From a virus, in UHGV virus genome UHGV-0171332: a DNA stretch of 18,525 nucleotides; one strand, 5' to 3'. Shown in pieces: positions 117 to 18,525 of this stretch (position 1 is its first letter; every line of letters starts with the position of its first letter). The notes under the pieces are model-generated. The model saw only the letters and a list, made by a program, of their open reading frames with translations. It did not search any database and had not been told where the DNA came from. Made by a program: the position numbers and the translations under genes.

Positions 117-854
117 ATGAAAAGTATCACAAAATTTCTTGTGTGCGCAACTCTGGGCTTAGGTGGATTAACTGCACAGGCACATGCTGCATCTGGTGAT
201 AGTACCGTATCCCTTGGATTCGCTCACCTTCAGCTATCCGGGCTGAATAATTTTGTTAAGGATTTAAGTCTTCATAACCTTGATACCTTTAACAATTTTG
301 TGAATGAAAACTATTTCAATTCACCTGGAGAATATGACGATGCGTTTGTCCGGGGCCATGATGGTAAAGAGAAAAGTCCCTTGGGAATGAACATTAAGTA
401 TCGTTATGAGATTACGGATGAGATCGGTGTTATAACCTCTTTTGCATGGGCTCGATCCATGACTAATGCACAGGCATTCATTGATGTTAAGCCTTCCGAT
501 CCATCACGAGAGGTAAAAAAACCGGCAGCTTCAGCGAGAACTGATATCAGGGCTAATTACTGGAGTCTACTATCCGGTCCTTCGTGGCGGTTTAATGAAT
601 ACCTCAGTGTGTATTCAATGGCAGGTGTTGCGGTTGCAAAAGTAACTTATGATTTGAAAGTTAACGACAATCTTAATGGTGGTGTAGGTAGTTTTTCTGA
701 AAGTAACAGCACCAAAAAAACGTCTATTGCATGGTCTGTCGGCGCGCAATTTAACTTCAATGAAAGTGTTACTATGGACGTCACTTATGAAAGCTCAGGC
801 TCTGGCGACTGGAAAACTGATGGTTTATTTGCAGGCATTGGCCTGAAATTCTGA
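117..854 (+). CDS. lom: Lom/Ail/PagC/Rck-family 8-strand outer-membrane beta-barrel protein (245 aa)
   Basis: N-terminal signal peptide ending AQAHA. Family-typical motifs STVSLGF, GMNIKYRYEITDEIGVITSF and C-terminal SGSGDWKTDGLFAGIGLKF with terminal Phe closely match my recollection of lambda Lom (recalled, not searched). It is about 40 aa longer than lambda Lom. Confidence 0.9.
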   Translation: MKSITKFLVCATLGLGGLTAQAHAASGDSTVSLGFAHLQLSGLNNFVKDLSLHNLDTFNNFVNENYFNSPGEYDDAFVRGHDGKEKSPLGMNIKYRYEITDEIGVITSFAWARSMTNAQAFIDVKPSDPSREVKKPAASARTDIRANYWSLLSGPSWRFNEYLSVYSMAGVAVAKVTYDLKVNDNLNGGVGSFSESNSTKKTSIAWSVGAQFNFNESVTMDVTYESSGSGDWKTDGLFAGIGLKF

Positions 855-4487: not shown

Positions 4488-7400
4488 ATGGCTTATTCCG
4501 ATGAACAGCGCCCTGAAGCGCAATTTGGCAACCAGAGCCGCAACAGCCTGAACATTCAGCAGCCGGGAGAGACTGACAGCTATGATGTGTTTTTCTCCGA
4601 TCCCAATCGCTGGAAGGACAACAGCACGTCGTTCAGCCTGGGCGATGTATTGCCAACTATGGGGAAAGGTGTCGCCCAGTCCGTCCGGGGGACAGGGGAA
4701 ATGGCCCGTGGACTCGGTGATGCGATGATTCAGAGCCCGGTAAAAACAGGGGTACGTATTTTAAATGAGTTCAGCCGTATGGGGCTGCCGGGAGTCGCAA
4801 CTGTTCAGGATATTTTTGTCGGTGGCAGCAAGGGGGCGGATGAGGTCATCGACACTCTGCCTGATGGAAAAAATGCGGTTACTGATACTGTCGGTAAAGG
4901 TCTGAAGGTCACAGGCAAGGCCGTCAGTGGCGGCGCTAAAGCCTCGGATGAATGGCTGACTGGCAAGATGTCGCCGGGGGCGCAGCGGGCGCTGAATACA
5001 CCGATGACTGAAGGATATGATGATTCAGCGGTCTGGGTAGCGAAAGGGGTTAACCTGATTGGTGCGCTTGTACCGGATATGGTTGCAGGCGGTGTGACTA
5101 AAAAGCTGGGTGATGTCACTCTGCGAAAAGTGCTGACCGCCGGGCTGGAGAAAAAATACATCGCGGCAGGGATGCAGCCGGAAAGAGCCACAGCACTGGC
5201 AGCCGAAGCTGTCGATAAAAAAATGCCGGATTTTTTCCAGGCAGGCCTGATCACCCATTCCACTGTCAGTGCGCAAGGGCGGAGTGCAATGGCAGCGGCA
5301 GATGCTGTTCTTAACGCGGATTATTCTGAGCTGGCGAAGTCACCGAAATTTCAGCAGACCTTTTTGTCAATTGATGCAGATCCGCAGCACGCGCAGCTTA
5401 CTGACCGCCAGAAAATGGACCTGGCAAAAGAGCGTGTTGCCGATGAGGTGCGTGCGCAGCTGGCAACCGATCCTGAATTGCTGGCTGTGAATGCCATGGC
5501 GGCAAAACTGGGCGATGCTCAGTTGCTTAATCTGGCGATGCGGGGCACGGCGAAGACCGTTAAAAGCGGCATTGTCAGAAATGCCACGGAACAGGGGACG
5601 ATTAATGCGGCGCAGGGTGGCTATTCACGCTATCAGGAAAACACGGCATTGCGTGAGACCGCCGGAATGGATGTGTCACCGTGGGAGGGCGTGGCTGACG
5701 CAACGATCGAAGGTGCAGCCCTTGGTGCTGCAATGGGGGCACCATTCGGTGCGGCTGCCGGATATCGTGGAAAACGTCAGGCGGCAGATGAAGCAGCCAT
5801 GCGTGAGGCTGAAAGCGTTCCTCAGGACGAATCGGCTCCGCAACCCGAACCGGTTGATCCGGTGGCACAGCATCGTGAATCTATGCAGGGGATGAATCGC
5901 GAGCAGCTTCTGGAACAGTATGCTGATGCGGATATGGCACATGAGGGAGACACGTCTGCCGTTCATCGCCGGGAAGCCGCCAGCCAGCTGTTGAATGAAC
6001 TGGATGAACAGGCGAAGCGACAGGCGGTGATGGATGAGCTGAAGGCGAAGCCGCGCCCTGAACTGCTTGAGGAATACCGAAAACTCAGCCAGAAGGAAGG
6101 GCGTACTGATACTGAAGAGCAGCAGTTACAGGCAATACGTGATGTGCTTCGCCCTCAGCGGGAGGCCAGACCGGAGGCACAGCCACAGCCGGAAAATGCG
6201 GATGATGGCGACGGGAGTATTTACCCGACGGTGCGGTTCCGCGATCCGGATGAAGTTCGTATTGAAATTAACGAGAGTGGTGCGTCCAGACCAGCAGAAC
6301 GCATTGAAAAGGTGCGTCCGGACAACCGTTATTTCACGGATGAAAAAAGTGCTCTGGGGAGCGACGTTTTCCGCAATGCCAGCGCCACCGGCCTGAAACC
6401 GTCCGTAGTGAAGAAAGGCGAGAATCAGTATGCCGTTGAAATGGATAATCCTGCGTTCTCTGAAGATGTGGCAACGGAGACCATTAACACTCTGGCTGAC
6501 GGAGAGCGTATTACTGATGCTGATCCGATGGAACAGCCCGCGTTCATGCGTGACCCGCGATTCCGTGGTTTTACGGGGGATGATACAGAAGTGCAGGCCC
6601 GTCTTGCTCGTGGCAACGCGCCGACGGCGGAAGAACTGGTGCGTTCCCAGATGGCTGAAGGTGATGCCGGTCCGACAGCACAGGAGTTAACTGAGCGTCC
6701 ACGCCTTCCCGCTCCCGGCGATATTCATCCCGGACAGGGATATCCGTTACCAGGAGAAGTAGCGCGTACGCCGGATGAAAATCAGGCCGGACGTGGTGGT
6801 CGTTTTACCACAACCGGTGAGGTGAAGGGCCAGAGTTTCCAGAAAGGACGTGCGCAGGCACCGGAAAATGCCGCTGGTCGCCAGGGGGAAATACTGGAGG
6901 GCGAAACAGTTCGTCGTGGTCTGCCGTCACCGGATGAGCAGAACGCCACAGCACCAGTGCGTGAAGGTCTTCCTGCACCTGAAAGTCAGCGTGGGGTTGA
7001 TATGCCACAGCCTGAATCACTCCCTCGTATGGTTCGTGACTCCCTTCCGGAACTGGCACAGCAGGCAGAAGCACGCAGACAGACCGGGGATAATCGCCAG
7101 ACCATAACCGATGTTCCGGATACTGAGGTGCCGGTGCCGGTAGATAAACCGAGCACTCACCAGCAGGCGCGTGGTGCGAAAATTGAAGACTTTGGCGAGG
7201 AGATTAAGGGCGCGGCAAAACACCGTTATGCGCAGCTTGCTGAAGCTATGGGTAAAACGCTGGAGGATGGGGAGTACGCGACACAACCACTGAGCAAACT
7301 GTTTCCAAAGCCGGATTATGCCCGTCTGGAAAAAGAAGGTGTGGATAGTGACACGCTGGCAATGATGGCGTTGTATCGCAGTGAAATTCCCACCAGAACA

Positions 7401-10400
7401 AGCCGTAACATGCAGAAATGGATCAGCATTGTTAAAAGCGGTCGCGAAGCTACTGCCGGTATGCTGGAGGGGAAAATTCCGGCAGCGAAACTGGCTGATA
7501 TGATGGACAGTAAGCCGGGGTTACGGAGCATGTCGGATACCTGGAAACTGCTCCGTACGCTTTCTGCATTGCAGATTGATAAAGCATCCGGCTATCGTGT
7601 CAGGTCCGGTGTTTATTCGTTTGTCGGGGGAAAACGTTACGATCCGCCGCAAATGATGTATTCGCTTCGTGATAGCAAGGGGCGCGACCTCTTTTTCTCG
7701 GAAAGCCGGGATGAGTTACTGAAAAAGGCGAAAGCATATTTCGATGAACAAGGCTCCAGAGAAAGGGAAACGCCAGCAACCTCTGCTGATGACAGAATAA
7801 CCTTTGACGTGTACCGGCATAAGGCCAGTGGCGACATTTTTATCGGTTATGGCAAAAACAGGCAGAAACTGAAGGGCGGTTTTGAGTCTGCCCGTGATGC
7901 ACATGATTATGTGCGCACACATCGTGATGAGCTGGTTAATCAGGTGAAGGCGCTGCGTGAAGTCTCGCGTGAGGAGCAGCGTAACGCCACCAACCGCGAT
8001 CGTACCGGACCAGAACGCCGCAAGGGGGATGTTTCGCCGGAGCAGTTCAGTGATGCGTTTGGTTTTCGTGGTGTGCAGTTTGGTAATTATGTGGAAAGTC
8101 CGCGTCGTCAGGCTGATTTGAACCGGGCTTATGACTCGCTGCATGACCTGGCTGACGTGCTGAACGTGCCGACAAAAGCGCTTTCTCTGAACGGTCGTCT
8201 TGGGCTTGCTTTTGGTGCCCGTGGTAAGGGTAAGGCGGCGGCACACTATGAGCCGGGTGAGGTGGCAATCAACCTGACAAAAGGTAACGGACCGGGGGCG
8301 CTGGCCCACGAATGGTTCCATTCACTGGATAATTATTTTGGTCGTTATGATGTTTCCACTGACGGGAAGATCACGTCAGGTGGCGACTATATGACGGAAG
8401 CACAGCGTGCCGGGCGCGTATTTAAAGACGGCAGGTATGTTGATGCGGAATATCCGGTACGTCAGGAGGTTTACGACGCGTTTAAAGGCGTGATGAAAGC
8501 CATTAACAGCAGTGACATGTTGCGTCGTTCTGAACGCCTGGATGGCGTTCGTTCAAAACCGTACTGGTCAACGGATGTTGAAATGGCGGCGCGAGCCTTT
8601 GAGCGTTATGTTCAGGATAAAGCGCGTATGGCTGGCGTGGAGAATGATTATCTGGTCAATATCCGTAAGGCGGATGACCATGGACAGCCGGACACCTACG
8701 CTTATCCGACGAATGCAGAACTGGATGGCGGTATTCGTGAGGCATTCGATCACTTGTTCCGAACACTGAAAACCCGTGAGACGGACAAGGGAGTTGCGTT
8801 TTATTCCCGTAAGGGCGTGACCCGCACACCTGAAGGCAATCTGATTTCGGATGTTAACCGCAGTGCGGAAGCCAAAGGCAGTCCGGTCCCGCAGGTTGAA
8901 GCTGTTGCCCGTGGCGTGATTAGTGGCATTAAGGACAGTGACCTGAAGGTCCGCGTGGTGAAGTCACAGAAAGAGGCTGAAGCACTGGCGGGTGAATCAT
9001 TCGACGGTTACGGCAAGGTGCACGCGTTCTATCGTCCGGATAAACGTGAAATTGTCCTGGTGGCGGATAACATCCCTGACGGGCGGACCGTTCGCGAGAA
9101 GTTACGTCACGAGATTATTCACCATGCAATGGAGCATGTAGTCACGCCAGCGGAATATCAGACGATTATTAAGACCGTGCTGAAAACCCGTGACAGTGAT
9201 AACGCCACCATCCGTGAAGCCTGGCGTAAGGTTGATGCGTCTTATGGTAAGGAATCACCGGAAGTGCAGGCGGGTGAATTTCTGGCGCATATGGCAGAGA
9301 AGCAGCCGATTAAATTCGTGGCGGCATGGGAGCGTGTTGTTGCCCTGGTCAAAGGGGTACTGCGTCGTACGGGGTTACTGAAGCCGACGGAACTGAACGA
9401 TATCAGACTTGTTCGCGAAACTATTCGCACGTTAGGCCAGCGTGTGCGGGAAGGTTACACGCCGCGTGAGGATGGCGCGGACGCATCGTCTCAGTACTCC
9501 CGTAGCGGTAAGCCTGATCCGTTCAAAGTGCCGGAAGGTGAGGGCGAGCGTTATCGTGATGACCTTGCCAGAATGATGAAGTCTCTGCGCACCACAGATT
9601 TAACGGTAAACATCGGGCGTACGCCGCCGGTATTGCGTCACCTTGGCGCACCAGATTTGCCGCTGGTTATCTCCCGCGACACTGTGCGTAAGGCCACCAA
9701 TGGAGTGAAACATGTGGTGCCGATGGATGTTATCGAGAGACTACCGGAACTGATGCACGATCCGGATGCAATTTACCGTTCCGCGACAGAAAGAAATGCG
9801 GTTGTGATGCTGCTTGATGCCATGGATAAAAATGGTGATCCTGTAGTGTCAGCGGTACACATGAAGGCTGTCCGGTCGCGCCTGGAAATCAACAAGGTAG
9901 CTTCGGTTTACGGTACGGAAGGAGGAATGAATAAGGCAAATAGTCTGGATAAAGCCGGATTAACGCTTTACCGGAAGAAAAAATTAAGCCGCGATAACCT
10001 TCTGCACAGAGGGCTTCAATTGCCCAAAGGGGAACATTCTTATCGCGGCTCTGTAGATAAAATACTCTATCCTGAAGATATTCGCAAGGGGCCGTATTAC
10101 TCCCGCACCAGCAGTCTGACGCCGGAAGAGACAATTGCATCCCGTTTTGTTCGCCAGATGCAGGATAAATTCCAGGTGCTGAAGGCGGTGCAGGAGAATA
10201 TCCGTAAAACTGGCGGAAAAATAGATGACAGCAATAACGCCTATATGGCTGAAGAACTCTTCCACGGGAAGGCGGAAAACGACCTGAACGTAATGAAGGA
10301 GCGCTACGTTCAGCCGCTGGCCAAATTGCTGGCGGACTACAAAATTGCGCAGGCCGATCTGGATGAGTACCTCTACGCCCGTCACGCGCCGGAACGTAAC

Positions 10401-12842
10401 GCGCATATTGCGAAAATCAACCCGAAAATGCCGGACGGCGGTTCGGGGATGACCAACGCGGAAGCGGCGGAAATCATGCAGCGTGTGCGTAACAGCGGCA
10501 AACAGGCACAGTATGACCGTCTGGCAGGGATTATTGACGATATGCTGGCCCGTCGCCGTGAGATTATCCGTGAGGCAGGACTGGAAGAGAGCGGCGTGGT
10601 GGATGCCTGGCAGAAAGCCTACCGTTACTACGTCCCCCTGAAAGGGCAGGATGTTGACGGTGTGGTGTCACTGCCACGTACAGGCAAGGGATTCACCATC
10701 GGCGGGCGTGAAAGTAAGCAGGCCATGGGGCGTGCATCCCGCGCACAGTCTCCTTCCACTCAGGCGATACAGGATTTGAGTGAATCGCTGATCCGCAATC
10801 GCAAAAATGAAGTGGGTAACGCCTTCCTGAAACTGGTACAGGATAATCCCGACAAGGATTACTGGCAGGTATTCACTGATGACAGACCGGATACAATGCG
10901 TGTGATTGCAGAGCGCAAGGACCAGGAAACTGGTGAAACCATTCGCGAAGTTGTCGAGCGCCCTGTGCCGATGGCAATGATGGCGGATCGCTACTTCACC
11001 ACCAAAAAGGACGGCAAAACTTACTACATTAAACTTCATGATCCGCGCCTGATGCGTGCGATGAAGAACATGGGGCCGGAAACCAGTAACGCCGTAATCC
11101 GTACGCTGGGGAAAGTTAACCGCTTCCTGGCAACGGTGAACACGTCGTATAACCCGGAATTTCTGGTCAGTAACTTCATCCGTGACGTGCAGACTGCGGT
11201 GATGAACCTGAAGGCTGAGCAGGGAAGAAGCGACGGCAAACTGAAAGGGCTGGATAACTTATCCGCGCTGGCTGTGGTGAAAGACAGCCGTTCCGCCATG
11301 TCAGCCGTATACGCAAGTCTGCGGGGTAAAACCCTCACGGGCAAAGGCGCACAGTGGCAGAAAGTGTGGAAAGAGTTTGTTGAGGACGGAGGTAAAACCG
11401 GCTGGTTTAACATGGGTGACCTTGAGGGCCAGCAGAAGGAAATGGATCGCCTTGTGTCGCTGGCGAAGGGCGGATGGAAAGGCCAGAGTATCGGTGCATG
11501 GCATTCGTTCCTGAACCTGGTCGAGGATGCCAACGGCGCGGTTGAAAACGCTCTGCGTCTTTCTGCCTATAAACACGCCCGTGATGCCGGTTTGTCACGC
11601 CAGCAGGCGGCGTCTCTTGCCAAAAACATGACGGTGAACTTTAACCGTCGTGGTGAGCAGGGGATGCTGATGAACTCGCTGTACATGTTTGCCAACGCCA
11701 GCATTCAGGGGACCGCAAACCTGGTGAGAACGCTCGGACATCTTAATGGCGACGGGCCGTTACTGGAGCGCCTTCGCTGGAAGAATCTCAATGTACCGCA
11801 GAAAATCGTGCTTGCAGCTGTGGGAGCGGGTTATCTGCTTGGCTCGCTTAACCGCAGTGTGGCGGGTGAGGATGATGACGGGGTTAACTGGTACGACAAA
11901 GTACCGTCTCATGTGAAAGAGCGTAACCTCGTCATCATGAAATCGATGTTCGGGGGCAAGGCCGGTGAGTACTGGAGTATTCCTCTGCCTTACGGGTACA
12001 ACGTGTTCTTCCTGCTTGGTCATACAGCTGAAGGTGTGGCAGCGGGCGACCTGACTGCTTCACGTGCTGCCGGTAATGTTGTCGGCGGTATCCTGGGAGC
12101 ATTCAGCCCGATCGGCAGCGAGACGTCGGAAACGTTGTCGGGGGCATTGCTGAAAAACGCAGCACCGACCATTCTGCGTCCGTTTGCGAACCTTGCCATG
12201 AATGAAAACTTCATGGGGGCGCAGATTTACCAGGAGAACATGCCGTTTGGTACACCAAAACCTGACAGCCAGCTGGGAAGACGTTCAACGCCAGAAGCGT
12301 ACAAGGCGTTTGCATCCTGGCTGAATGCGTTCTCAGGTGGCAGCCAGTATCGTCCCGGCGCGGTGGATATCACACCGGAATCGCTGAAATTCTGGATTGA
12401 CTATATCTCCGGAGGGACAGGGCGCTTCATTTCCAAAACCACGGATGCGGCGGTGAAATCGCTGAATGGTATTGATATACCGGAACAGCAGGTGCCCTTC
12501 CTGGGGAAAATTTCGGGTGAGGTGATGCCGTATGCAGACCAGCAGAAGATGTACGACCGGATGACAGAGGTTGCGCAGTATCACGCAGAGCTGAAGAGTC
12601 TGACCGGTGCAGAAAGAACGGCGTTCATTGACGAGAACAACGGAAAATTGTTGATGAACGGGCTTATGCAGGATACCCGGAAGAGACTGAAGGATTTGCG
12701 CAAACAGCGCGATGCCATTTATGCCGACAGTTCTCTCAGTCTGGCGCAGCAGGCGGCGATGGTGAAATCGGTAGAGCGGGATATGAAGGTTGCCGTGGAT
12801 CGGTTTAACCGCGAGTACAACAAAAAAGTGGGAGTGGATTAA
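4488..12842 (+). CDS. Giant multi-domain protein (2784 aa) with two HExxH (zincin-like) motifs, a Pro/Glu/Gln-rich low-complexity linker and hydrophobic Gly/Ala segments; function unknown
   Basis: Uninterrupted 8355-nt ORF with GGAG SD. HEWFH at aa 1274-1278 (nt 8307-8321) and HEIIH at aa 1541-1545 (nt 9108-9122). Gly/Ala hydrophobic stretch EGAALGAAMGAPFGAAAGY at aa 408-426 (nt 5709-5765). C-terminal hydrophobic segments near aa 2438-2454 and 2529-2545. No Walker A or methyltransferase motif seen. Coding status is high confidence; functional assignment is low. Confidence 0.85.
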   Translation: MAYSDEQRPEAQFGNQSRNSLNIQQPGETDSYDVFFSDPNRWKDNSTSFSLGDVLPTMGKGVAQSVRGTGEMARGLGDAMIQSPVKTGVRILNEFSRMGLPGVATVQDIFVGGSKGADEVIDTLPDGKNAVTDTVGKGLKVTGKAVSGGAKASDEWLTGKMSPGAQRALNTPMTEGYDDSAVWVAKGVNLIGALVPDMVAGGVTKKLGDVTLRKVLTAGLEKKYIAAGMQPERATALAAEAVDKKMPDFFQAGLITHSTVSAQGRSAMAAADAVLNADYSELAKSPKFQQTFLSIDADPQHAQLTDRQKMDLAKERVADEVRAQLATDPELLAVNAMAAKLGDAQLLNLAMRGTAKTVKSGIVRNATEQGTINAAQGGYSRYQENTALRETAGMDVSPWEGVADATIEGAALGAAMGAPFGAAAGYRGKRQAADEAAMREAESVPQDESAPQPEPVDPVAQHRESMQGMNREQLLEQYADADMAHEGDTSAVHRREAASQLLNELDEQAKRQAVMDELKAKPRPELLEEYRKLSQKEGRTDTEEQQLQAIRDVLRPQREARPEAQPQPENADDGDGSIYPTVRFRDPDEVRIEINESGASRPAERIEKVRPDNRYFTDEKSALGSDVFRNASATGLKPSVVKKGENQYAVEMDNPAFSEDVATETINTLADGERITDADPMEQPAFMRDPRFRGFTGDDTEVQARLARGNAPTAEELVRSQMAEGDAGPTAQELTERPRLPAPGDIHPGQGYPLPGEVARTPDENQAGRGGRFTTTGEVKGQSFQKGRAQAPENAAGRQGEILEGETVRRGLPSPDEQNATAPVREGLPAPESQRGVDMPQPESLPRMVRDSLPELAQQAEARRQTGDNRQTITDVPDTEVPVPVDKPSTHQQARGAKIEDFGEEIKGAAKHRYAQLAEAMGKTLEDGEYATQPLSKLFPKPDYARLEKEGVDSDTLAMMALYRSEIPTRTSRNMQKWISIVKSGREATAGMLEGKIPAAKLADMMDSKPGLRSMSDTWKLLRTLSALQIDKASGYRVRSGVYSFVGGKRYDPPQMMYSLRDSKGRDLFFSESRDELLKKAKAYFDEQGSRERETPATSADDRITFDVYRHKASGDIFIGYGKNRQKLKGGFESARDAHDYVRTHRDELVNQVKALREVSREEQRNATNRDRTGPERRKGDVSPEQFSDAFGFRGVQFGNYVESPRRQADLNRAYDSLHDLADVLNVPTKALSLNGRLGLAFGARGKGKAAAHYEPGEVAINLTKGNGPGALAHEWFHSLDNYFGRYDVSTDGKITSGGDYMTEAQRAGRVFKDGRYVDAEYPVRQEVYDAFKGVMKAINSSDMLRRSERLDGVRSKPYWSTDVEMAARAFERYVQDKARMAGVENDYLVNIRKADDHGQPDTYAYPTNAELDGGIREAFDHLFRTLKTRETDKGVAFYSRKGVTRTPEGNLISDVNRSAEAKGSPVPQVEAVARGVISGIKDSDLKVRVVKSQKEAEALAGESFDGYGKVHAFYRPDKREIVLVADNIPDGRTVREKLRHEIIHHAMEHVVTPAEYQTIIKTVLKTRDSDNATIREAWRKVDASYGKESPEVQAGEFLAHMAEKQPIKFVAAWERVVALVKGVLRRTGLLKPTELNDIRLVRETIRTLGQRVREGYTPREDGADASSQYSRSGKPDPFKVPEGEGERYRDDLARMMKSLRTTDLTVNIGRTPPVLRHLGAPDLPLVISRDTVRKATNGVKHVVPMDVIERLPELMHDPDAIYRSATERNAVVMLLDAMDKNGDPVVSAVHMKAVRSRLEINKVASVYGTEGGMNKANSLDKAGLTLYRKKKLSRDNLLHRGLQLPKGEHSYRGSVDKILYPEDIRKGPYYSRTSSLTPEETIASRFVRQMQDKFQVLKAVQENIRKTGGKIDDSNNAYMAEELFHGKAENDLNVMKERYVQPLAKLLADYKIAQADLDEYLYARHAPERNAHIAKINPKMPDGGSGMTNAEAAEIMQRVRNSGKQAQYDRLAGIIDDMLARRREIIREAGLEESGVVDAWQKAYRYYVPLKGQDVDGVVSLPRTGKGFTIGGRESKQAMGRASRAQSPSTQAIQDLSESLIRNRKNEVGNAFLKLVQDNPDKDYWQVFTDDRPDTMRVIAERKDQETGETIREVVERPVPMAMMADRYFTTKKDGKTYYIKLHDPRLMRAMKNMGPETSNAVIRTLGKVNRFLATVNTSYNPEFLVSNFIRDVQTAVMNLKAEQGRSDGKLKGLDNLSALAVVKDSRSAMSAVYASLRGKTLTGKGAQWQKVWKEFVEDGGKTGWFNMGDLEGQQKEMDRLVSLAKGGWKGQSIGAWHSFLNLVEDANGAVENALRLSAYKHARDAGLSRQQAASLAKNMTVNFNRRGEQGMLMNSLYMFANASIQGTANLVRTLGHLNGDGPLLERLRWKNLNVPQKIVLAAVGAGYLLGSLNRSVAGEDDDGVNWYDKVPSHVKERNLVIMKSMFGGKAGEYWSIPLPYGYNVFFLLGHTAEGVAAGDLTASRAAGNVVGGILGAFSPIGSETSETLSGALLKNAAPTILRPFANLAMNENFMGAQIYQENMPFGTPKPDSQLGRRSTPEAYKAFASWLNAFSGGSQYRPGAVDITPESLKFWIDYISGGTGRFISKTTDAAVKSLNGIDIPEQQVPFLGKISGEVMPYADQQKMYDRMTEVAQYHAELKSLTGAERTAFIDENNGKLLMNGLMQDTRKRLKDLRKQRDAIYADSSLSLAQQAAMVKSVERDMKVAVDRFNREYNKKVGVD

Positions 12843-12965: not shown

Positions 12966-13184
12966 ATGTTTAATGAAGAAAAAGTTGCGCAAATGGCAGC
13001 GTATTTGCTGAAAAAGCATGGCGGATCTATGCGTTTCATTAAGCTGATGAAGCTGATGAAGCTGATGAAGCTGATGAAGCTGATGTATCTCTCTGACCGC
13101 AAAGCAATGGAGTCTTTAACCGGGAAGGGGAGAGGTTTGAATGCTCCCCCACAATTCCCCGGCATCAAATCTCCATGCAGGTGA
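12966..13184 (+). pseudogene. Truncated Panacea/SocA-like (DUF4065-type) phage-associated gene fragment carrying an in-frame repeat expansion
   Basis: The N-terminus MFNEEKVAQMAAYLLKKHGG...KLMKLMYLSDR resembles the start of Panacea-domain proteins as I recall them (KLQKLLY-type helix). The ORF stops after 72 codons where it meets the 3' end of the convergent minus-strand gene block; full-length family members are roughly twice that length. Confidence 0.4.
13041..13085 (+). repeat. Perfect 9-bp tandem repeat (AAGCTGATG) x5, in frame (KLM x5)
   Basis: Five head-to-tail copies read directly in the sequence. The minus-strand reading gives the spurious ISF repeat ORF. Confidence 0.95.
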
Positions 13185-13270: not shown

Positions 13271-14197
13271 TCATTGGCGTACCTCCTTCGGCGGTTCTGG
13301 TAGCGGCATCCAGTGGGTTACTTCTTTGAGATGCAGGTCTTCGCCATCACCGTCATCCCAAGTGGGATTGCCATCATTAAACCAGTCGCCATATACGCCG
13401 ACCTGAGTGTTGGGGATGCTTGGTGGGTAGTTGTTTTTAAAGTCAGCTGCTAACACATAGTATTGTCGCTCTCCCATTTCTGGCATTCGATCACTACAGC
13501 TTATCCAACCATCCGGAGTTACCGGAACTGGCGGAACGGCTGTTTGCTCTCGAACGTCATTAGTCGCTATCGGTTCTGCTGCCAACTGACTGGCATATTT
13601 GTTAATGGTAACGATAAGCTCTTGCTCAGCCTCATCCAGACAATCACCGATACCTCGCCTGTCACCGTCAAAATCATCGAAATCGGCACGAATCTTGGCA
13701 ACCTTCAGGATTGCGGACAACACCTCACTAGGAATTACCGGATAGTTGGTTGACGTTTCCGCGATTTCCCGAAAATTATTGGTTGACGAATTCTTGTTTT
13801 CCCGAAAGTTTCCGGACTGAAGCATAGCGGCACGGCAGGCGTTCCAGCCTCTCACCTCTGCAATAGCGGCAACAGCATCAACCGCGTACATGCTAAGAGG
13901 ATTAGGCATTGGTTTTTCTTCCGGTACTACTGGTGCTGGAGGGGCGGCGTAAATGCCCTCTATCACTAAATGTTTGCGCTCAAAATCATCTGGCTCTCGA
14001 TGATATACGTAACTCCAATCACCAAGGTTATCATTGCGCCTGCAACGGAAACCTATCGGCTCGGCTTCCAGCGCTGCCAGTGCAATTCGTGCCAGTTCTT
14101 CCGCTTCTTCTGCTGGCAGTACAACGTTGCTACCCGGTCCGTATGTTTCGCGCCACTGCTTGATTGTCAGCAGTCGCCCTTTGGTAATAGTGATCAT
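13271..14197 (-). CDS. DUF551-domain protein, Ead/Ea22-region type (308 aa)
   Basis: C-terminal region DGWISCSDRMPE...YYVLAADF...THWMPLPEPP matches the DUF551 signature as I recall it. Its stop lies at the convergence junction and its start overlaps the upstream gene stop by 4 nt (ATGA), indicating an operon. Confidence 0.7.
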   Translation of the reverse strand: MITITKGRLLTIKQWRETYGPGSNVVLPAEEAEELARIALAALEAEPIGFRCRRNDNLGDWSYVYHREPDDFERKHLVIEGIYAAPPAPVVPEEKPMPNPLSMYAVDAVAAIAEVRGWNACRAAMLQSGNFRENKNSSTNNFREIAETSTNYPVIPSEVLSAILKVAKIRADFDDFDGDRRGIGDCLDEAEQELIVTINKYASQLAAEPIATNDVREQTAVPPVPVTPDGWISCSDRMPEMGERQYYVLAADFKNNYPPSIPNTQVGVYGDWFNDGNPTWDDGDGEDLHLKEVTHWMPLPEPPKEVRQ

Positions 14198-14709
14198 GCC
14201 GCGTTTCCTTCTTTCTTATTAACAATCACACCGTCATATATTTCATTAAGGTGCCCTCTCAACTCCATGCGCCTTAATGCAGATAACATGTAATCGCATT
14301 CAACCTGCTTATTCCCAGTAAATGGCTTATCGTCAGGATTACCCCAACAGCAATTACCCCTGGGCCATCCATGTACTTTCCGTACTCTTCCGTTAACAAC
14401 GTGAAGTAATCCCCAGCCGGGAGGTAAATCCTCAACTGAAATAATTTCCGGCTCACTAATAAAGAATCGCCAGTCGCCCATGCCAAGTGAGGGATTTTTA
14501 CGGAAACGCTTTTTTCTATCTGCCAACAAGTCAGCACGAGAACACTTCGCCTCTATCAGGCATGATGCTGAATTTCTGAATCCCATAGCATCTGGCTGTT
14601 CTCCGGTACTGGTTACAGCTATAAAGCGGTCATGAAAACAAACCTTGAACCCGTTGCGCTTAAGGAACTTGTACGCAATCTGACAGAGTTCGCGGTGTGT
14701 TAATGCCAT
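14194..14709 (-). CDS. Hypothetical protein with PD-(D/E)xK nuclease-like motif (171 aa)
   Basis: Motif EQPD...(12 aa)...LIEAK: a PD followed by ExK at spacing typical of the restriction-endonuclease-like fold. The C-terminal half is Cys/Trp-rich. Fold assignment is an inference from motif only. Confidence 0.55.
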   Translation of the reverse strand: MALTHRELCQIAYKFLKRNGFKVCFHDRFIAVTSTGEQPDAMGFRNSASCLIEAKCSRADLLADRKKRFRKNPSLGMGDWRFFISEPEIISVEDLPPGWGLLHVVNGRVRKVHGWPRGNCCWGNPDDKPFTGNKQVECDYMLSALRRMELRGHLNEIYDGVIVNKKEGNAA

Positions 14710-14710
14710 A

Positions 14711-15412
14711 TCACTCTCCTTTGATGCGAATGCCAGCGACGCGTAATGCGTGTTCTAGGTCAATCAGGTAAAGCCAACTGCCATTTTCTTTAGGTATCAT
14801 GACGTGGCGCTCATCATCATTTATCGGATGTCCATATCGAAGGCCGTAGCGAGTCGGCAAATGAACTTCCCGCGTTTCCAGCTCTTTAACGCGTTCCTCC
14901 AGTTCGTAGACCCTGCATTGTTCTCTATCATCAATCAGATATAACCCAAGACATTCGCTTTCTACCCAACCGCCAAAATCATGATCGTAACGCTCACATG
15001 AAAACTCACCGTCACCGTCCTTTGTTGGAATGGTGTAACTATCTAATGGGCCACCATATGTCGGCACATTTCCCAATGTTGGATGCTCAATCCACATGAA
15101 AAATGTACGTCCGGTTATTGGGCAAATATCTGGCCGCCATTGGTTACGAACAGCCTTGGTTTCGGATAATTCTTCAGCGTGTTGTTTTACTTCCTCAAGC
15201 TCAACACGCAGCTTCCCAACCGTAAGAGCAATTTCCTCGTTCTCCTGGTCGCGGCGTTTGATGTATTGCTGGTTTCTTTCCCGCTCATCCAGCAGTTCCA
15301 GCACAATCGATGGTGTTACCAATTCATGGAAAAGGTCTGCGTCAAATCCCCAGTCGTCATGCATTGCCTGCTCTGCCGCTTCACGCAGTGCCTGAGAGTT
15401 AATTTCGCTCAC
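14711..15412 (-). CDS. Ead/Ea22-like family protein (233 aa)
   Basis: N-terminus MSEINSQALREAAEQAMHDDWGFDADLFHELVTPSIVLELLDERE followed by a charged coiled-coil-like stretch, as recalled for Ea22-like proteins of E. coli lambdoid prophages. The 4-nt overlap (ATGA) with the upstream TraR-like gene fits lambda early-left organisation. Confidence 0.7.
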   Translation of the reverse strand: MSEINSQALREAAEQAMHDDWGFDADLFHELVTPSIVLELLDERERNQQYIKRRDQENEEIALTVGKLRVELEEVKQHAEELSETKAVRNQWRPDICPITGRTFFMWIEHPTLGNVPTYGGPLDSYTIPTKDGDGEFSCERYDHDFGGWVESECLGLYLIDDREQCRVYELEERVKELETREVHLPTRYGLRYGHPINDDERHVMIPKENGSWLYLIDLEHALRVAGIRIKGE

Positions 15413-15630
15413 TTCGAACCTCTCTGTTTACTGATAAGCTCCAGATCTTCCTGGCAACTTGCACAAGTCCGACAACCCTGAACGACCAGGCGTCTTCGTT
15501 CATCTATCGGATCGCCACACTCACAACAATGAGTGGCAGATATAGCCTGGTGGTTCAGGCGGCGCATTTTTATTGCTGTGTTGCGCTGTAATTCTTCAAT
15601 TTCTGATGCTGAATCAATGATGTCTGCCAT
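15409..15630 (-). CDS. TraR/DksA-family C4 zinc-finger protein (73 aa), phage TraR-like (lambda orf73-type)
   Basis: CCECGDPIDERRRLVVQGCRTCASCQ contains the CxxC...CxxC zinc ribbon with the conserved acidic tip of the DksA/TraR family. The size matches phage and plasmid TraR proteins. Confidence 0.8.
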   Translation of the reverse strand: MADIIDSASEIEELQRNTAIKMRRLNHQAISATHCCECGDPIDERRRLVVQGCRTCASCQEDLELISKQRGSK

Positions 15631-15680
15631 CTTCCATTAATCCCTGAATTGTTGGTTAATACGCTTGAGGGTGAATGCGA

Positions 15681-15707
15681 ATAATAAAAAAGGAGCCTGT
15701 AGCTCCC
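15681..15707 (-). terminator. Intrinsic terminator on the minus strand inside the early-left-like cluster
   Basis: On the minus strand: GGAGC / GCTCC stem with a 5-nt loop followed by a T-rich tract (TTTTTTATTATT), between the stop of the 15729-15944 ORF and the TraR-like start. Confidence 0.45.
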
Positions 15708-15728
15708 TGATGATTTTGCTTTTCATGT

Positions 15729-15944
15729 TCATCGTTCCTTAAAGACGCCGTTTAACATGCCGATTGCCAGGCTTAAATGAGTCGGTGTGAATCCCATCAG
15801 CGTTACCGTTTCGCGGTGCTTCTTCAGTACGCTACGGCAAATGTCATCGACGTTTTTATCCGGAAACTGCTGTCTGGCTTTTTTGATTTCAGAATTAGCC
15901 TGACGGGCAATGCTGCGAAGGGCGTTTTCCTGCTGAGGTGTCAT
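15729..15944 (-). CDS. Hypothetical small protein (71 aa from internal ATG; the ORF track extends it to 16010, 93 aa)
   Basis: Intact ORF in the early-left-like cluster. Start is ambiguous: the ATG at 16010 has no SD and sits 10 nt after the upstream stop; the ATG at 15944 has a weak GGGA upstream. No motif recognised. Confidence 0.45.
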   Translation of the reverse strand: MTPQQENALRSIARQANSEIKKARQQFPDKNVDDICRSVLKKHRETVTLMGFTPTHLSLAIGMLNGVFKER

Positions 15945-16020
15945 TGAACAAGTCCCATGTCGGCAAGCATAAGCACACAGAATATGAAGCCCGCTGCCAG
16001 AAAAATGCATTCAGTGGTTG

Positions 16021-16212
16021 TCATACCTGGTCTCTCTCATCTGCTTCTGCTTTCGCCACCATCATTTCCAGCTTTTGTGAAAGGGATGCGGCTAACGTGT
16101 GAAATTCTTCGTCTGTTTCTACTGGTATTGGCACAAACCTGACTCCAATTTGAGCGAGGCTATGTGCCATCTCGATACTCGTTCTTAACTTAACGGTAGA
16201 TGCTTTGTGCAT
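16021..16212 (-). CDS. Hypothetical small protein (63 aa), lambda orf63-like by position and size
   Basis: Internal ATG at 16212 preceded by a G7 tract. The long form of the track ORF (to 16458) would overlap the ren start and its promoter region, so it is disfavoured. Assignment to the lambda orf63 family is by length and position only. Confidence 0.45.
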   Translation of the reverse strand: MHKASTVKLRTSIEMAHSLAQIGVRFVPIPVETDEEFHTLAASLSQKLEMMVAKAEADERDQV

Positions 16213-16321
16213 ACAGCCCCCCCATTTATTATTTATCTCCTCAGCCAGCCGCTGTGCTTTCAGGGGATTTCGGATTACAGAAAGGCCGGGAAATACCCAG
16301 CCTCGCTTTGTAACGGAGTAG

Positions 16322-16420
16322 ACGAAAGTGATTGCGCCTAAACCTCTAAATCGTGCACAGGCTCTGGCGAAGATCGCAGAAATTAAAGCTAAGTTCGGAC
16401 TGAAAGGAGCAAGTGTATGA
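16322..16420 (+). pseudogene. Possible 3' remnant of an upstream replication-region gene (lambda P-like position) ending in an ATGA overlap with ren
   Basis: A 33-codon open frame (TKVIAPKPLNRAQALAKIAEIKAKFGLKGASV*) with no start codon; its stop overlaps the ren ATG as in stop-start coupled phage operons. Identity as a P fragment is inferred from synteny only. Confidence 0.25.
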
Positions 16421-16719
16421 CGGGCAAAGAGGCAATTATTCATTACCTGGGGACGCATAAGAGCTTCTGTGCACAGGACGTTGCCGCGGTAACAGGCGCA
16501 ACCGTAACCAGCATAAATCAGGCTGCGGCTAAAATGGCGCGGGCAGGAATCCTGGTCGTTGATGGTAAGGTCTGGCGAACGGTGTATTACCGGTTCGCTA
16601 CCAGAGAAGAACGGGAAGGAAAGGTGAGCACGAATCTGATTTTTAAGGAGTGTCGCCAGAGTGCCGCGATGAAACGGGTATTGAGGGTATATAAAAGAAC
16701 ATCAATGGGTACACAATGA
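16417..16719 (+). CDS. ren: Ren-like protein (100 aa)
   Basis: SD AAAGGAG upstream. The sequence MTGKEAIIHYLGTH...VTSINQAAAKMARAG...VWRTVYYRFATREEREGK matches my recollection of lambda Ren (not searched). It sits immediately upstream of emrE, as renD does in DLP12. Confidence 0.6.
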   Translation: MTGKEAIIHYLGTHKSFCAQDVAAVTGATVTSINQAAAKMARAGILVVDGKVWRTVYYRFATREEREGKVSTNLIFKECRQSAAMKRVLRVYKRTSMGTQ

Positions 16720-16786
16720 TGAAACAGGTGAGTTGAGTTCAAACTGTAGTACAATTCTCTCCAGTTTGAACAGGAAAGAATATGCT

Positions 16787-17119
16787 ATGAACCCTTATAT
16801 TTATCTTGGTGGTGCAATACTTGCAGAGGTCATTGGTACAACCTTAATGAAGTTTTCAGAAGGTTTTACACGGTTATGGCCATCTGTTGGTACAATTATT
16901 TGTTATTGTGCATCATTCTGGTTATTAGCGCAGACGCTGGCTTATATTCCTACAGGGATTGCTTATGCTATCTGGTCAGGAGTCGGTATTGTCCTGATTA
17001 GCTTACTGTCATGGGGATTTTTCGGCCAACGGCTGGACATGCCAGCCATTATAGGCATGATGTTGATTTGTGCCGGAGTGTTGGTTATTAATTTATTGTC
17101 ACGAAGCACACCACATTAA
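16787..17119 (+). CDS. emrE: EmrE small multidrug resistance (SMR) efflux transporter (110 aa)
   Basis: MNPYIYLGGAILAEVIGTTLMKFSEGFTRLWPSVGTIICYCASFWLLAQTLAYIPTGIAYAIWSGVGIVLISLLSWGFFGQRLD...STPH is near-identical to E. coli EmrE as I recall it, including the catalytic Glu14 in helix 1. The track's TTG start at 16733 adds 18 non-conserved residues and is rejected. Confidence 0.92.
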   Translation: MNPYIYLGGAILAEVIGTTLMKFSEGFTRLWPSVGTIICYCASFWLLAQTLAYIPTGIAYAIWSGVGIVLISLLSWGFFGQRLDMPAIIGMMLICAGVLVINLLSRSTPH

Positions 17120-17150
17120 AAATAATTTGTTTCTAAACGACTAAAATATG

Positions 17151-17190
17151 GAGGCTCTTATATTTATATGAGCCTCGTTTTATGCTTTTT
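17151..17190 (+). terminator. Rho-independent terminator of emrE
   Basis: GAGGCTC / GAGCCTC stem with an AT-rich 12-nt loop followed by GTTTTATGCTTTTT, 30 nt after the emrE stop. Confidence 0.6.
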
Positions 17191-17377
17191 GTTAATGTCT
17201 TTATTTTTTTTTATGTATTCTTTTGTGCTTTCAAGATTATGGTGTAAGAAAATTGCAATACGATTATTGTTGTATATTCAAGATAATGTGACCTTAATTG
17301 TCTTTTTAAATAAAAATTAAACAAAAATTATATCTCACCACTAAGGTTTATAAAAACATACGTTAGCAGGTGTCACC

Positions 17378-18525
17378 ATGAAAAAAGCCATAGCATATAT
17401 GCGATTTTCATCACCAGGTCAGATGTCTGGCGACTCATTAAACCGACAGAGAAGACTTATTGCTGAATGGTTAAAGGTAAATAGTGATTATTATCTTGAT
17501 ACCATAACATATGAAGATTTAGGATTAAGTGCATTCAAAGGAAAGCATGCACAATCAGGAGCTTTTTCGGAATTTTTAGATGCTATAGAGCATGGTTATA
17601 TATTGCCAGGAACTACATTGTTAGTTGAAAGTCTGGACAGGCTTTCAAGAGAAAAAGTCGGTGAAGCGATTGAACGTCTGAAATTGATTTTGAATCACGG
17701 TATTGATGTTATAACTCTTTGCGACAATACAGTCTATAATATTGACTCTTTGAATGAGCCATATTCATTAATAAAAGCCATACTTATAGCACAAAGGGCA
17801 AATGAAGAAAGCGAGATAAAGTCAAGTCGGGTTAAATTATCATGGAAGAAAAAACGGCAGGATGCACTGGAATCAGGTACGATTATGACGGCGTCTTGTC
17901 CGAGATGGCTATCCTTAGATGACAAAAGAACGGCTTTTGTTCCAGACCCCGACAGGGTGAAAACTATTGAGCTAATTTTTAAACTCAGGATGGAAAGGCG
18001 CTCATTGAATGCAATAGCCAAGTATTTAAATGATCATGCTGTAAAAAATTTCTCAGGAAAAGAAAGTGCATGGGGGCCTTCTGTAATTGAAAAATTATTA
18101 GCGAATAAAGCTCTGATAGGTATATGCGTACCTTCATATCGTGCAAGAGGTAAAGGAATAAGTGAAATCGCTGGCTATTATCCCAGAGTCATATCAGATG
18201 ATTTGTTTTACGCTGTGCAGGAAATTCGGTTGGCACCTTTTGGTATTAGCAATAGTAGCAAAAATCCTATGTTGATAAATCTACTTCGAACAGTTATGAA
18301 GTGCGAGGCTTGTGGTAATACCATGATTATTCATGCGGTATCTGGAAGTTTGCATGGCTATTATGTTTGTCCGATGAGAAGACTGCATCGATGTGACAGG
18401 CCATCAATAAAGAGAGATTTGGTTGATTATAATATCATTAATGAGTTGCTTTTTAATTGTAGCAAAATCCAACCAGTTGAAAACAAGAAAGATGCTAATG
18501 AAACTTTAGAGTTGAAAATTATTGA
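17378..18525 (+). CDS. ybcK: Large serine recombinase (resolvase/invertase-type N-terminal catalytic domain), 5' part only; runs off the window end
   Basis: N-terminus AIAYMRFSSPGQ matches the catalytic-serine motif of serine recombinases (Y-x-R-x-S-x-x-x-Q), and Cys-rich CEACGN...CPMRRLHRC suggests a zinc ribbon in the recombinase domain. The symbol is assigned by synteny with DLP12 emrE-ybcK: the 258-bp spacing matches my recollection of K-12 to within a few bp. Confidence 0.8.
   Translation, partial: MKKAIAYMRFSSPGQMSGDSLNRQRRLIAEWLKVNSDYYLDTITYEDLGLSAFKGKHAQSGAFSEFLDAIEHGYILPGTTLLVESLDRLSREKVGEAIERLKLILNHGIDVITLCDNTVYNIDSLNEPYSLIKAILIAQRANEESEIKSSRVKLSWKKKRQDALESGTIMTASCPRWLSLDDKRTAFVPDPDRVKTIELIFKLRMERRSLNAIAKYLNDHAVKNFSGKESAWGPSVIEKLLANKALIGICVPSYRARGKGISEIAGYYPRVISDDLFYAVQEIRLAPFGISNSSKNPMLINLLRTVMKCEACGNTMIIHAVSGSLHGYYVCPMRRLHRCDRPSIKRDLVDYNIINELLFNCSKIQPVENKKDANETLELKII

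Follow-up and report, generated by a model that had tools for sequence, protein, structure and literature searches.

The window analysed here is the whole 18,525-nucleotide stretch of the virus genome UHGV-0171332, and our subject is an open reading frame (ORF) on its minus strand at positions 14194–14709, which, to judge from sequence comparison and a structural model, very probably encodes a DNA-cutting enzyme of the restriction-endonuclease fold. The original prediction, made from the letters of the sequence alone, had described an ORF for a nuclease-like protein at this place, and its coordinates prove exact: a minus-strand frame of 171 amino acids with an ATG start. The TGA of the Ea22-like gene upstream (14711–14713) ends just 1 nt ahead of the nuclease ATG, and this tight spacing suggests translational coupling inside a single leftward operon; on the other side, the nuclease stop and the ATG of the DUF551 gene overlap as ATGA (14194–14197). 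The frame is intact and 98–99% identical to copies in functional phages, and comparison with the orthologue in Shigella phage Ss-VASD gives a ratio of non-synonymous to synonymous substitution rates (dN/dS) of about 0.08, from 10 synonymous and 3 non-synonymous differences (distant pairs are unusable for this purpose, dS being saturated). The sequence comparison thus indicates a real gene under purifying selection.

The nuclease assignment had been drawn from a PD dipeptide followed by E-A-K. The motif is present, and 12 residues do separate its aspartate from its glutamate, but the residue numbers given were one too high: the motif is P39-D40 and E53-A54-K55, and the substitutions proposed for the catalytic residues become D40A and K55A in place of D41A and K56A. 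Taken alone, the bare PD-(D/E)xK motif is no evidence. The pattern D-x(8-25)-[DE]-x-K turns up in 59% of 20,000 shuffles of the nuclease protein, and PD-x(8-25)-[DE]-x-K in 5.6% of 20,000; since the bare motif is so common in shuffles, the case rests on conservation, fold, and profile comparison. With regard to conservation, D40, E53, and K55 are kept in all 112 of 112 close homologues, and each is kept in 124 of 125 distant representatives, taken from the 50%-identity clusters that cover the region. E37, D60, D64, K67, R70, G78, and R81 are equally constant among the 125, position 27 is a D or an E in 107 of them, and a near-invariant basic/acidic helix motif, S-R58-x-D60-F-x-x-D64-x-K-K67-x-F-R70, is also common to the MmcB proteins discussed below. 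The triad is lost in only two of the 237 members covering the motif columns, P0149 and P0225, which may be inactivated copies; P0149 has V-H-V-V in place of I-E-x-K.

It had also been remarked that the C-terminal half of the protein is rich in cysteine and tryptophan. This holds loosely, in that the half contains three of the seven cysteines (residues 120, 121, and 138) and all four tryptophans (80, 99, 115, and 122), but W99 is the only one of these that is conserved, and none of the seven cysteine positions is kept among the 125 representatives. The richness therefore carries no functional weight. The cysteine positions give no sign of a metal or iron-sulphur (Fe-S) cluster, and a zinc or Fe-S site in this half is ruled out by the lack of any conserved cysteine; the Cas4/AddB-type Fe-S nucleases differ from the phage family in this respect, as the four cysteines that hold their cluster are conserved.

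We modelled the protein with AlphaFold2 from a 32-sequence alignment. The best model has a predicted local distance difference test score (pLDDT) of 84.5 and a predicted template modelling score (pTM) of 0.79, and it runs as helix 5–18, strands 23–25, 41–45, and 48–54, helix 58–65, strand 80–85, a hairpin at 100–113, and a helix at 134–150, which is the alpha-beta-beta-beta-alpha-beta order of the restriction-endonuclease core. The helix at residues 5–18 agrees with the N-terminal helix-like segment noticed earlier. In the model D40 opens core strand 2 (41–45) and E53-x-K55 closes core strand 3 (48–54), so placed that D40 would face E53 across the hairpin by way of a two-residue turn (46–47). 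A Foldseek search with the model finds Protein Data Bank (PDB) entry 3DNX at an E value of 3.1e-6, and the matches among predicted viral structures include phage proteins named 'MmcB-like DNA repair protein'.

Library searches with the single sequence are uninformative: neither Pfam nor NCBIfam gives a match for the window protein at E <= 1, PADLOC (PADLOC-DB 2.0) gives none at E <= 1 for the nuclease or its two neighbours, and a search of the PDB sequences returns noise only (a lectin and a flavin reductase, E 0.2–0.9). The protein falls into PHROGs 9263 and 631, neither of which has a known function, and it weakly matches (E 0.005) a PHROG labelled 'DNA repair protein'. A profile of the family searched against the PDB sequences picks out 3dnx at E 0.2, aligning D...IExKxSRxDFxAD. 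In the census of PD-(D/E)XK proteins by Steczkiewicz et al. (2012; PMC3424549), 3DNX is the structure of DUF1052, equivalent to PF06319 and COG5321. The current Pfam name for PF06319 is 'DNA repair protein MmcB-like'.

We therefore compared the family directly with four MmcB-family reference genes taken from Sinorhizobium, Rhizobium, and Bacillus plasmids, which Pfam confirms at 59–265 bits. With hhalign, the 32-sequence family alignment matches the four MmcB proteins with a probability of 92% (E 6e-7, 127 columns), and a 44-sequence alignment of distant members does so at 96.9% (E 1.3e-10). In the alignment D27/E, D40, E53, and K55 stand opposite E42, D52, E66, and K68, which are invariant in MmcB, and the S-R-x-D-F-x-x-D-x-K helix motif likewise falls on the corresponding motif of MmcB. 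Pfam matches below threshold to the MmcB-like, Hjc, AHJR-like, and VRR_NUC families are also seen for distant members, although the MmcB-like threshold is not reached, the best relative (P0266) scoring 16.9 bits against a cut-off of 22. The profile comparison and fold prediction proposed as a check on the motif were thus both positive, the core order being found and D40, E53, and K55 aligning with MmcB, and together with the conserved triad they support a PD-(D/E)xK nuclease-like protein that, by sequence and model, is a remote homologue of MmcB. It falls outside PF06319 as modelled now and, being missed by the Pfam, NCBIfam, and PADLOC models, represents an un-modelled, phage-borne sister family of MmcB.

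The two groups are readily told apart. Identity between the phage family and MmcB is only about 19–23%, and the phage proteins have a signature of their own, comprising H5, E37-x-P-D, K-K-x-F-R, G-M-G-D-W-R, and P-x-G-W-G-L-L. MmcB is mainly chromosomal, alphaproteobacterial, and reported to be SOS-regulated, whereas the phage family is found on phages and prophages of Gammaproteobacteria and others; examples of the MmcB/DUF1052/COG5321 group are SPO1766 of Silicibacter pomeroyi (the protein in 3DNX) and MmcB of Caulobacter crescentus. A review presents the latter as a PD-(D/E)XK endonuclease that is induced in the SOS response and defends Caulobacter against mitomycin C and cisplatin (PMC9578287), properties known for the Caulobacter protein only; it may work alongside translesion polymerases at interstrand crosslinks (PMC9578287; bioRxiv 10.1101/2022.06.10.495655). 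Likeness to Hjc (PF01870), AHJR-like (PF18743), VRR-NUC (PF08774), and NucS is much weaker than to 3DNX, with no Pfam match at threshold, and the additional C-terminal beta-hairpin and helix (residues 100–150) are common to the phage family and MmcB but not to Hjc. Unlike the Type II restriction endonucleases (SdaI, NgoMIV, the FokI cleavage domain, BspD6I), the phage nuclease has no DNA-recognition domain, nor is there a conserved cognate methyltransferase beside it (DNA_methylase is found at 3 of 141 neighbours) or a PADLOC match. Our literature search found no functional data on phage MmcB-like proteins, and none of the nuclease-related terms that we looked for occurs in a review of exo-xis modelling (PMC8614690).

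The family is large. The nuclease matches 304 clusters at 90% identity, each named one being a 'hypothetical protein', and 3351 representatives of 50%-identity clusters at E <= 0.001 (2449 at E <= 1e-10). Of 5426 complete E. coli genomes, 928 (17%) have the gene, in up to six copies each and with 248 places on plasmids, and a spread sample of 12 E. coli matches is annotated 'hypothetical protein' throughout. Phage P7 carries it, and so does a record named Escherichia phage P1; Salmonella is a further source of the exact protein, whose close cluster members are from E. coli and Shigella. A tblastn search matches 643 phage records. Phages of Vibrio and Klebsiella are among them, as is a jumbo phage of Tenacibaculum, and so are strictly virulent Ackermannviridae, for example Dickeya phage LIMEstone1 and the ViI-like phages of Salmonella; the family thus spans temperate and virulent phages.

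The DNA surrounding the gene is of the Shiga toxin (Stx) phage type (Sepvirinae), with the best matches being to Stx2 phage 86 and Shigella phages POCJ13, 75/02 Stx, and Ss-VASD; many Stx1a and Stx2a phages are also among the matches. The proposed location in an early-left (exo-xis) accessory cluster is well founded, in that the gene is flanked by DUF551 ('EaA') and Ead/Ea22 genes and the orthologue in Ss-VASD, gp12, occurs in the same order. In that phage the order on one strand is int, xis ... DUF551, gp12, Ea22 ... exo, RecT-like, gam. Different settings are found in other phages. In Ackermannviridae the family gene is a short way upstream of the DNA primase gene; in one of the records, Klebsiella phage FKP10, the two genes adjoin and the family gene is labelled 'DNA repair protein'. 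In LIMEstone1 (locus L013, 5594–6250) the insertion of F-LimV, annotated as a homing endonuclease, falls exactly between the nuclease-family gene and that for primase. In Vibrio phage X29 the family gene lies in a replication and recombination module that also holds a recombination-associated exonuclease, an RNase T-like exonuclease, a RusA-like resolvase, Dam, and SSB. We surveyed the neighbours at 76 IMG/VR loci (141 immediate neighbours) and six metagenome loci, and they are mixed: DUF551 accounts for 7 of the 141, dATP/dGTP pyrophosphohydrolase and Ea22 for 5 each, and methylases, helicases, NinB, NinG, SSB, and DnaB are found besides at the IMG/VR loci. Some members are fused to other sequences. 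The fusions in P0122 and P0009 (to Ea22) and in P0020 (a deletion-fusion to DUF551) appear to be neighbouring genes joined by local rearrangement, and those in P0137 (a TniB/AAA-like N-terminus) and P0226 (a 270-aa C-terminus of unknown type) are single-contig cases with no interpretable pattern.

The features of the window are listed in Table 1. To the left of the early genes lies a giant ORF, separated from the DUF551 gene by 430 bp. Before it come the Ail/Lom gene and several PHROG families without known function, and, as in Shigella phage POCJ13, the interval from the giant ORF to the ea genes contains no integrase. The 72-aa ORF in the gap contains a perfect tandem repeat of five 9-bp units (AAGCTGATG) encoding (KLM)x5, and this could be a slippage-prone, phase-variable, or decaying gene. 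To the right, a strong terminator-like minus-strand hairpin with an 8-bp stem and four G-C pairs, followed by TTTTTATTATT, lies between the ORF at 15729–16010 and the TraR/DksA gene; it resembles the terminators of lambdoid early-left operons that are read through by antitermination. A scan of the window for promoters and terminators gave site counts no higher than those in shuffles.

Table 1. Coordinates of features in the window, with DUF551 beside the nuclease family at other loci
Feature	Position	Strand	Remarks
Nuclease gene	14194–14709	minus	171 aa, ATG start; predicted stand-alone PD-(D/E)xK protein, remote MmcB/DUF1052 homologue
Catalytic motif codons, P39-D40 ... E53-A54-K55	14545–14595	minus	D40, 14590–14592; E53, 14551–14553; K55, 14545–14547
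Shine-Dalgarno AGGAG	14716–14720	minus	6 nt before nuclease ATG, read from sequence
Ead/Ea22-like gene, upstream	14711–15412	minus	233 aa; Pfam PF13935, E 9e-20; lambdoid exo-xis region marker
DUF551 gene, downstream	13271–14197	minus	308 aa; Pfam PF04448, E 1.2e-19, C-terminal residues 230–304
TraR/DksA-type C4 zinc-finger gene, further upstream	15409–15630	minus	Pfam PF01258, E 1.6e-8; PHROG 54, E 8e-25
Terminator-like hairpin	15690–15708	minus	
DUF1317/DUF1382 gene, further upstream	16021–16458	minus	
Ren-like gene	16417–16719	plus	
EmrE/SMR efflux gene	16787–17119	plus	
72-aa ORF	12966–13184	plus	PHROGs 3658 and 28947, unknown function; in gap between giant ORF and DUF551 gene
Tandem repeat in 72-aa ORF	13041–13085		
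Giant ORF	4488–12842	plus	2784 aa; phage homologues annotated 'LPD5 domain-containing protein'
Ail/Lom outer-membrane protein gene	117–854		before giant ORF
DUF551, locus L014	4660–4977		beside nuclease-family gene
DUF551, locus L011	3073–3783		beside nuclease-family gene
DUF551, locus L012	3044–3754		beside nuclease-family gene

The right end of the window, from about 15180 to 18525, matches at 99.7% identity a segment of the E. coli chromosome that carries Ea22-like, TraR/DksA, Ren-like, EmrE, and ybcK genes and that we take to resemble the DLP12 prophage remnant. The window contains no int, xis, exo-bet-gam, or pL/N region, and specifically none of exo/bet/gam, N, and pL lies between the ea genes and ren. 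The accessory cluster thus appears to be joined to a defective prophage, and because the arrangement of the whole window occurs in no complete E. coli genome of the collection, the gene may sit in a rearranged or defective prophage.

We suggest that the gene encodes a small, stand-alone, divalent-metal-dependent PD-(D/E)xK phosphodiesterase of the MmcB sister family that serves phage DNA replication, recombination, or repair, and we put the probability of this reading at roughly 55%. A role in these processes seems the most likely in view of its place in the leftward early string with exo, bet, and gam in lambdoid phages and beside primase in virulent ones, and of the functions named in the original prediction (recombination, superinfection exclusion, or anti-defence) the context favours DNA metabolism over exclusion. 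In such an enzyme the D40 and E53 carboxylates, with D27/E assisting, would hold Mg2+ or Mn2+, K55 would position the attacking water, and a face formed by R58, K66, K67, R70, and R81 would bind DNA. Cleavage would most probably be of damaged or branched DNA rather than of a specific sequence, and one plausible, if speculative, task would be to clear lesions from a prophage genome that has been induced by DNA damage. Several points weigh against this proposal. Four of the five AlphaFold2 models have a pLDDT of only 65–75, and the clustering of D40, E53, and K55 in space is deduced from topology and homology. At the 76 IMG/VR and six metagenome loci no gene or operon recurs as a fixed partner that might point to a pathway, the top families each making up no more than 5% of neighbours, and location in an accessory region is also typical of anti-defence genes. 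Moreover, the leftward string in the window abuts the Ren-like and EmrE genes, and as the pL/N region is absent, expression of the nuclease here is uncertain.

The last but one of these points bears on the possibility that the protein is an anti-defence or host-takeover nuclease, destroying host DNA, the nucleic acid of a defence system, or a signalling molecule and so letting the phage evade bacterial immunity. The gene does belong to a variable accessory region, a place in which genes for counter-defence cluster, related loci carry a Lar-like restriction-alleviation gene, a MazZ-type pyrophosphohydrolase (5 of 141 neighbours), and DNA methylases, and occurrence in both temperate and virulent phages is often seen for counter-defence genes. 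We nonetheless think this unlikely: there is no likeness to known anti-defence families (although no dedicated anti-defence library search was made), the nearest relatives are repair or structure-specific nucleases, and in Ackermannviridae the gene is in the replication module by primase and not in an early host-takeover cluster. Virulent phages also bear on whether this is a nuclease for prophage defence or superinfection exclusion, cutting foreign DNA as it enters, as the family is present in the strictly virulent LIMEstone1 and ViI-like Salmonella phages. Defence systems commonly use PD-(D/E)xK nucleases as effectors, and prophage accessory regions carry exclusion genes, with a Ren-like gene nearby in this instance; but PADLOC finds no match at E <= 1, no sensor or partner gene accompanies the family, and the gene is in a lytic early string rather than a lysogen-expressed moron cassette, all of which make such a role highly improbable.

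Some PD-(D/E)xK domains are inactive binders, and Ea22 and small exo-xis ORFs have been reported to be modulators of phage development (PMC10834534), which raises the question of whether the protein might be a catalytically silent DNA-binding or regulatory protein modulating the lysis-lysogeny decision. This is very unlikely given that D40, E53, K55, E37, D60, and D64 are near-invariant (124–125 of 125), as befits a working active site, that the triad is lost in only 2 of 237 sequences, and that occurrence in virulent phages does not suit a regulator of lysogeny. Lastly, patchiness among otherwise similar Stx phages (the gene is in only some of the 499 records that match a 2.5-kb stretch) and the presence of up to six copies per E. 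coli genome could reflect a free-standing, selfish endonuclease of the homing type that spreads its own gene between related phages. We regard this as the most improbable of these explanations, because the protein has no DNA-recognition extension and is a conserved single domain of 160–170 aa homologous to a chromosomal repair enzyme, the family extends from phages of Enterobacterales to those of Vibrio and Tenacibaculum in many contexts, and the LIMEstone1 family gene is itself adjoined by a separate annotated homing endonuclease.

Within the reading that we prefer, that of a nuclease of phage DNA metabolism, the association with DUF551 is the only lead with some novelty, being recurrent but not universal, with an occasional fusion. 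A DUF551 gene is found within 3 kb and on the same strand in 17 of 80 IMG/VR loci, a figure that comes without a background rate for early regions generally; in the window the DUF551 gene downstream overlaps the nuclease gene by ATGA, in Vibrio phage X29 a DUF551 gene is immediately upstream of the family gene, and a 236-aa fusion of nuclease and DUF551 (P0222) is present on two independent metagenome contigs. As an obligate partner DUF551 is rejected by the same count of 17 in 80. It is conceivable, if distinctly doubtful, that the family is a phage-specific lesion- or branch-processing endonuclease with DUF551 as a targeting or partner module, repairing or unhooking damage in phage DNA at SOS-triggered induction; were this true, phages would encode a counterpart of their own to the MmcB crosslink pathway, and DUF551 would gain its first function.

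No concept is changed by these findings, as small nucleases are to be expected in phage early regions and this is an ordinary new member of a known superfamily. They do expose a gap in the Pfam and NCBIfam models, which a new family model could close, and they concern a gene that is widespread, being present in about one in six complete E. coli genomes, in P1/P7-like plasmid prophages, and in Stx phages, and yet labelled 'hypothetical protein'; it also occurs in ViI-like and Limestone-like Ackermannviridae, virulent phages that are under consideration for therapy. Assignment to the MmcB branch gives the protein a testable activity and a set of catalytic residues, D40, E53, and K55. If it processes damaged or branched DNA, then it may affect the recovery and replication of Stx prophages after DNA-damaging induction, and hence the release of toxin.

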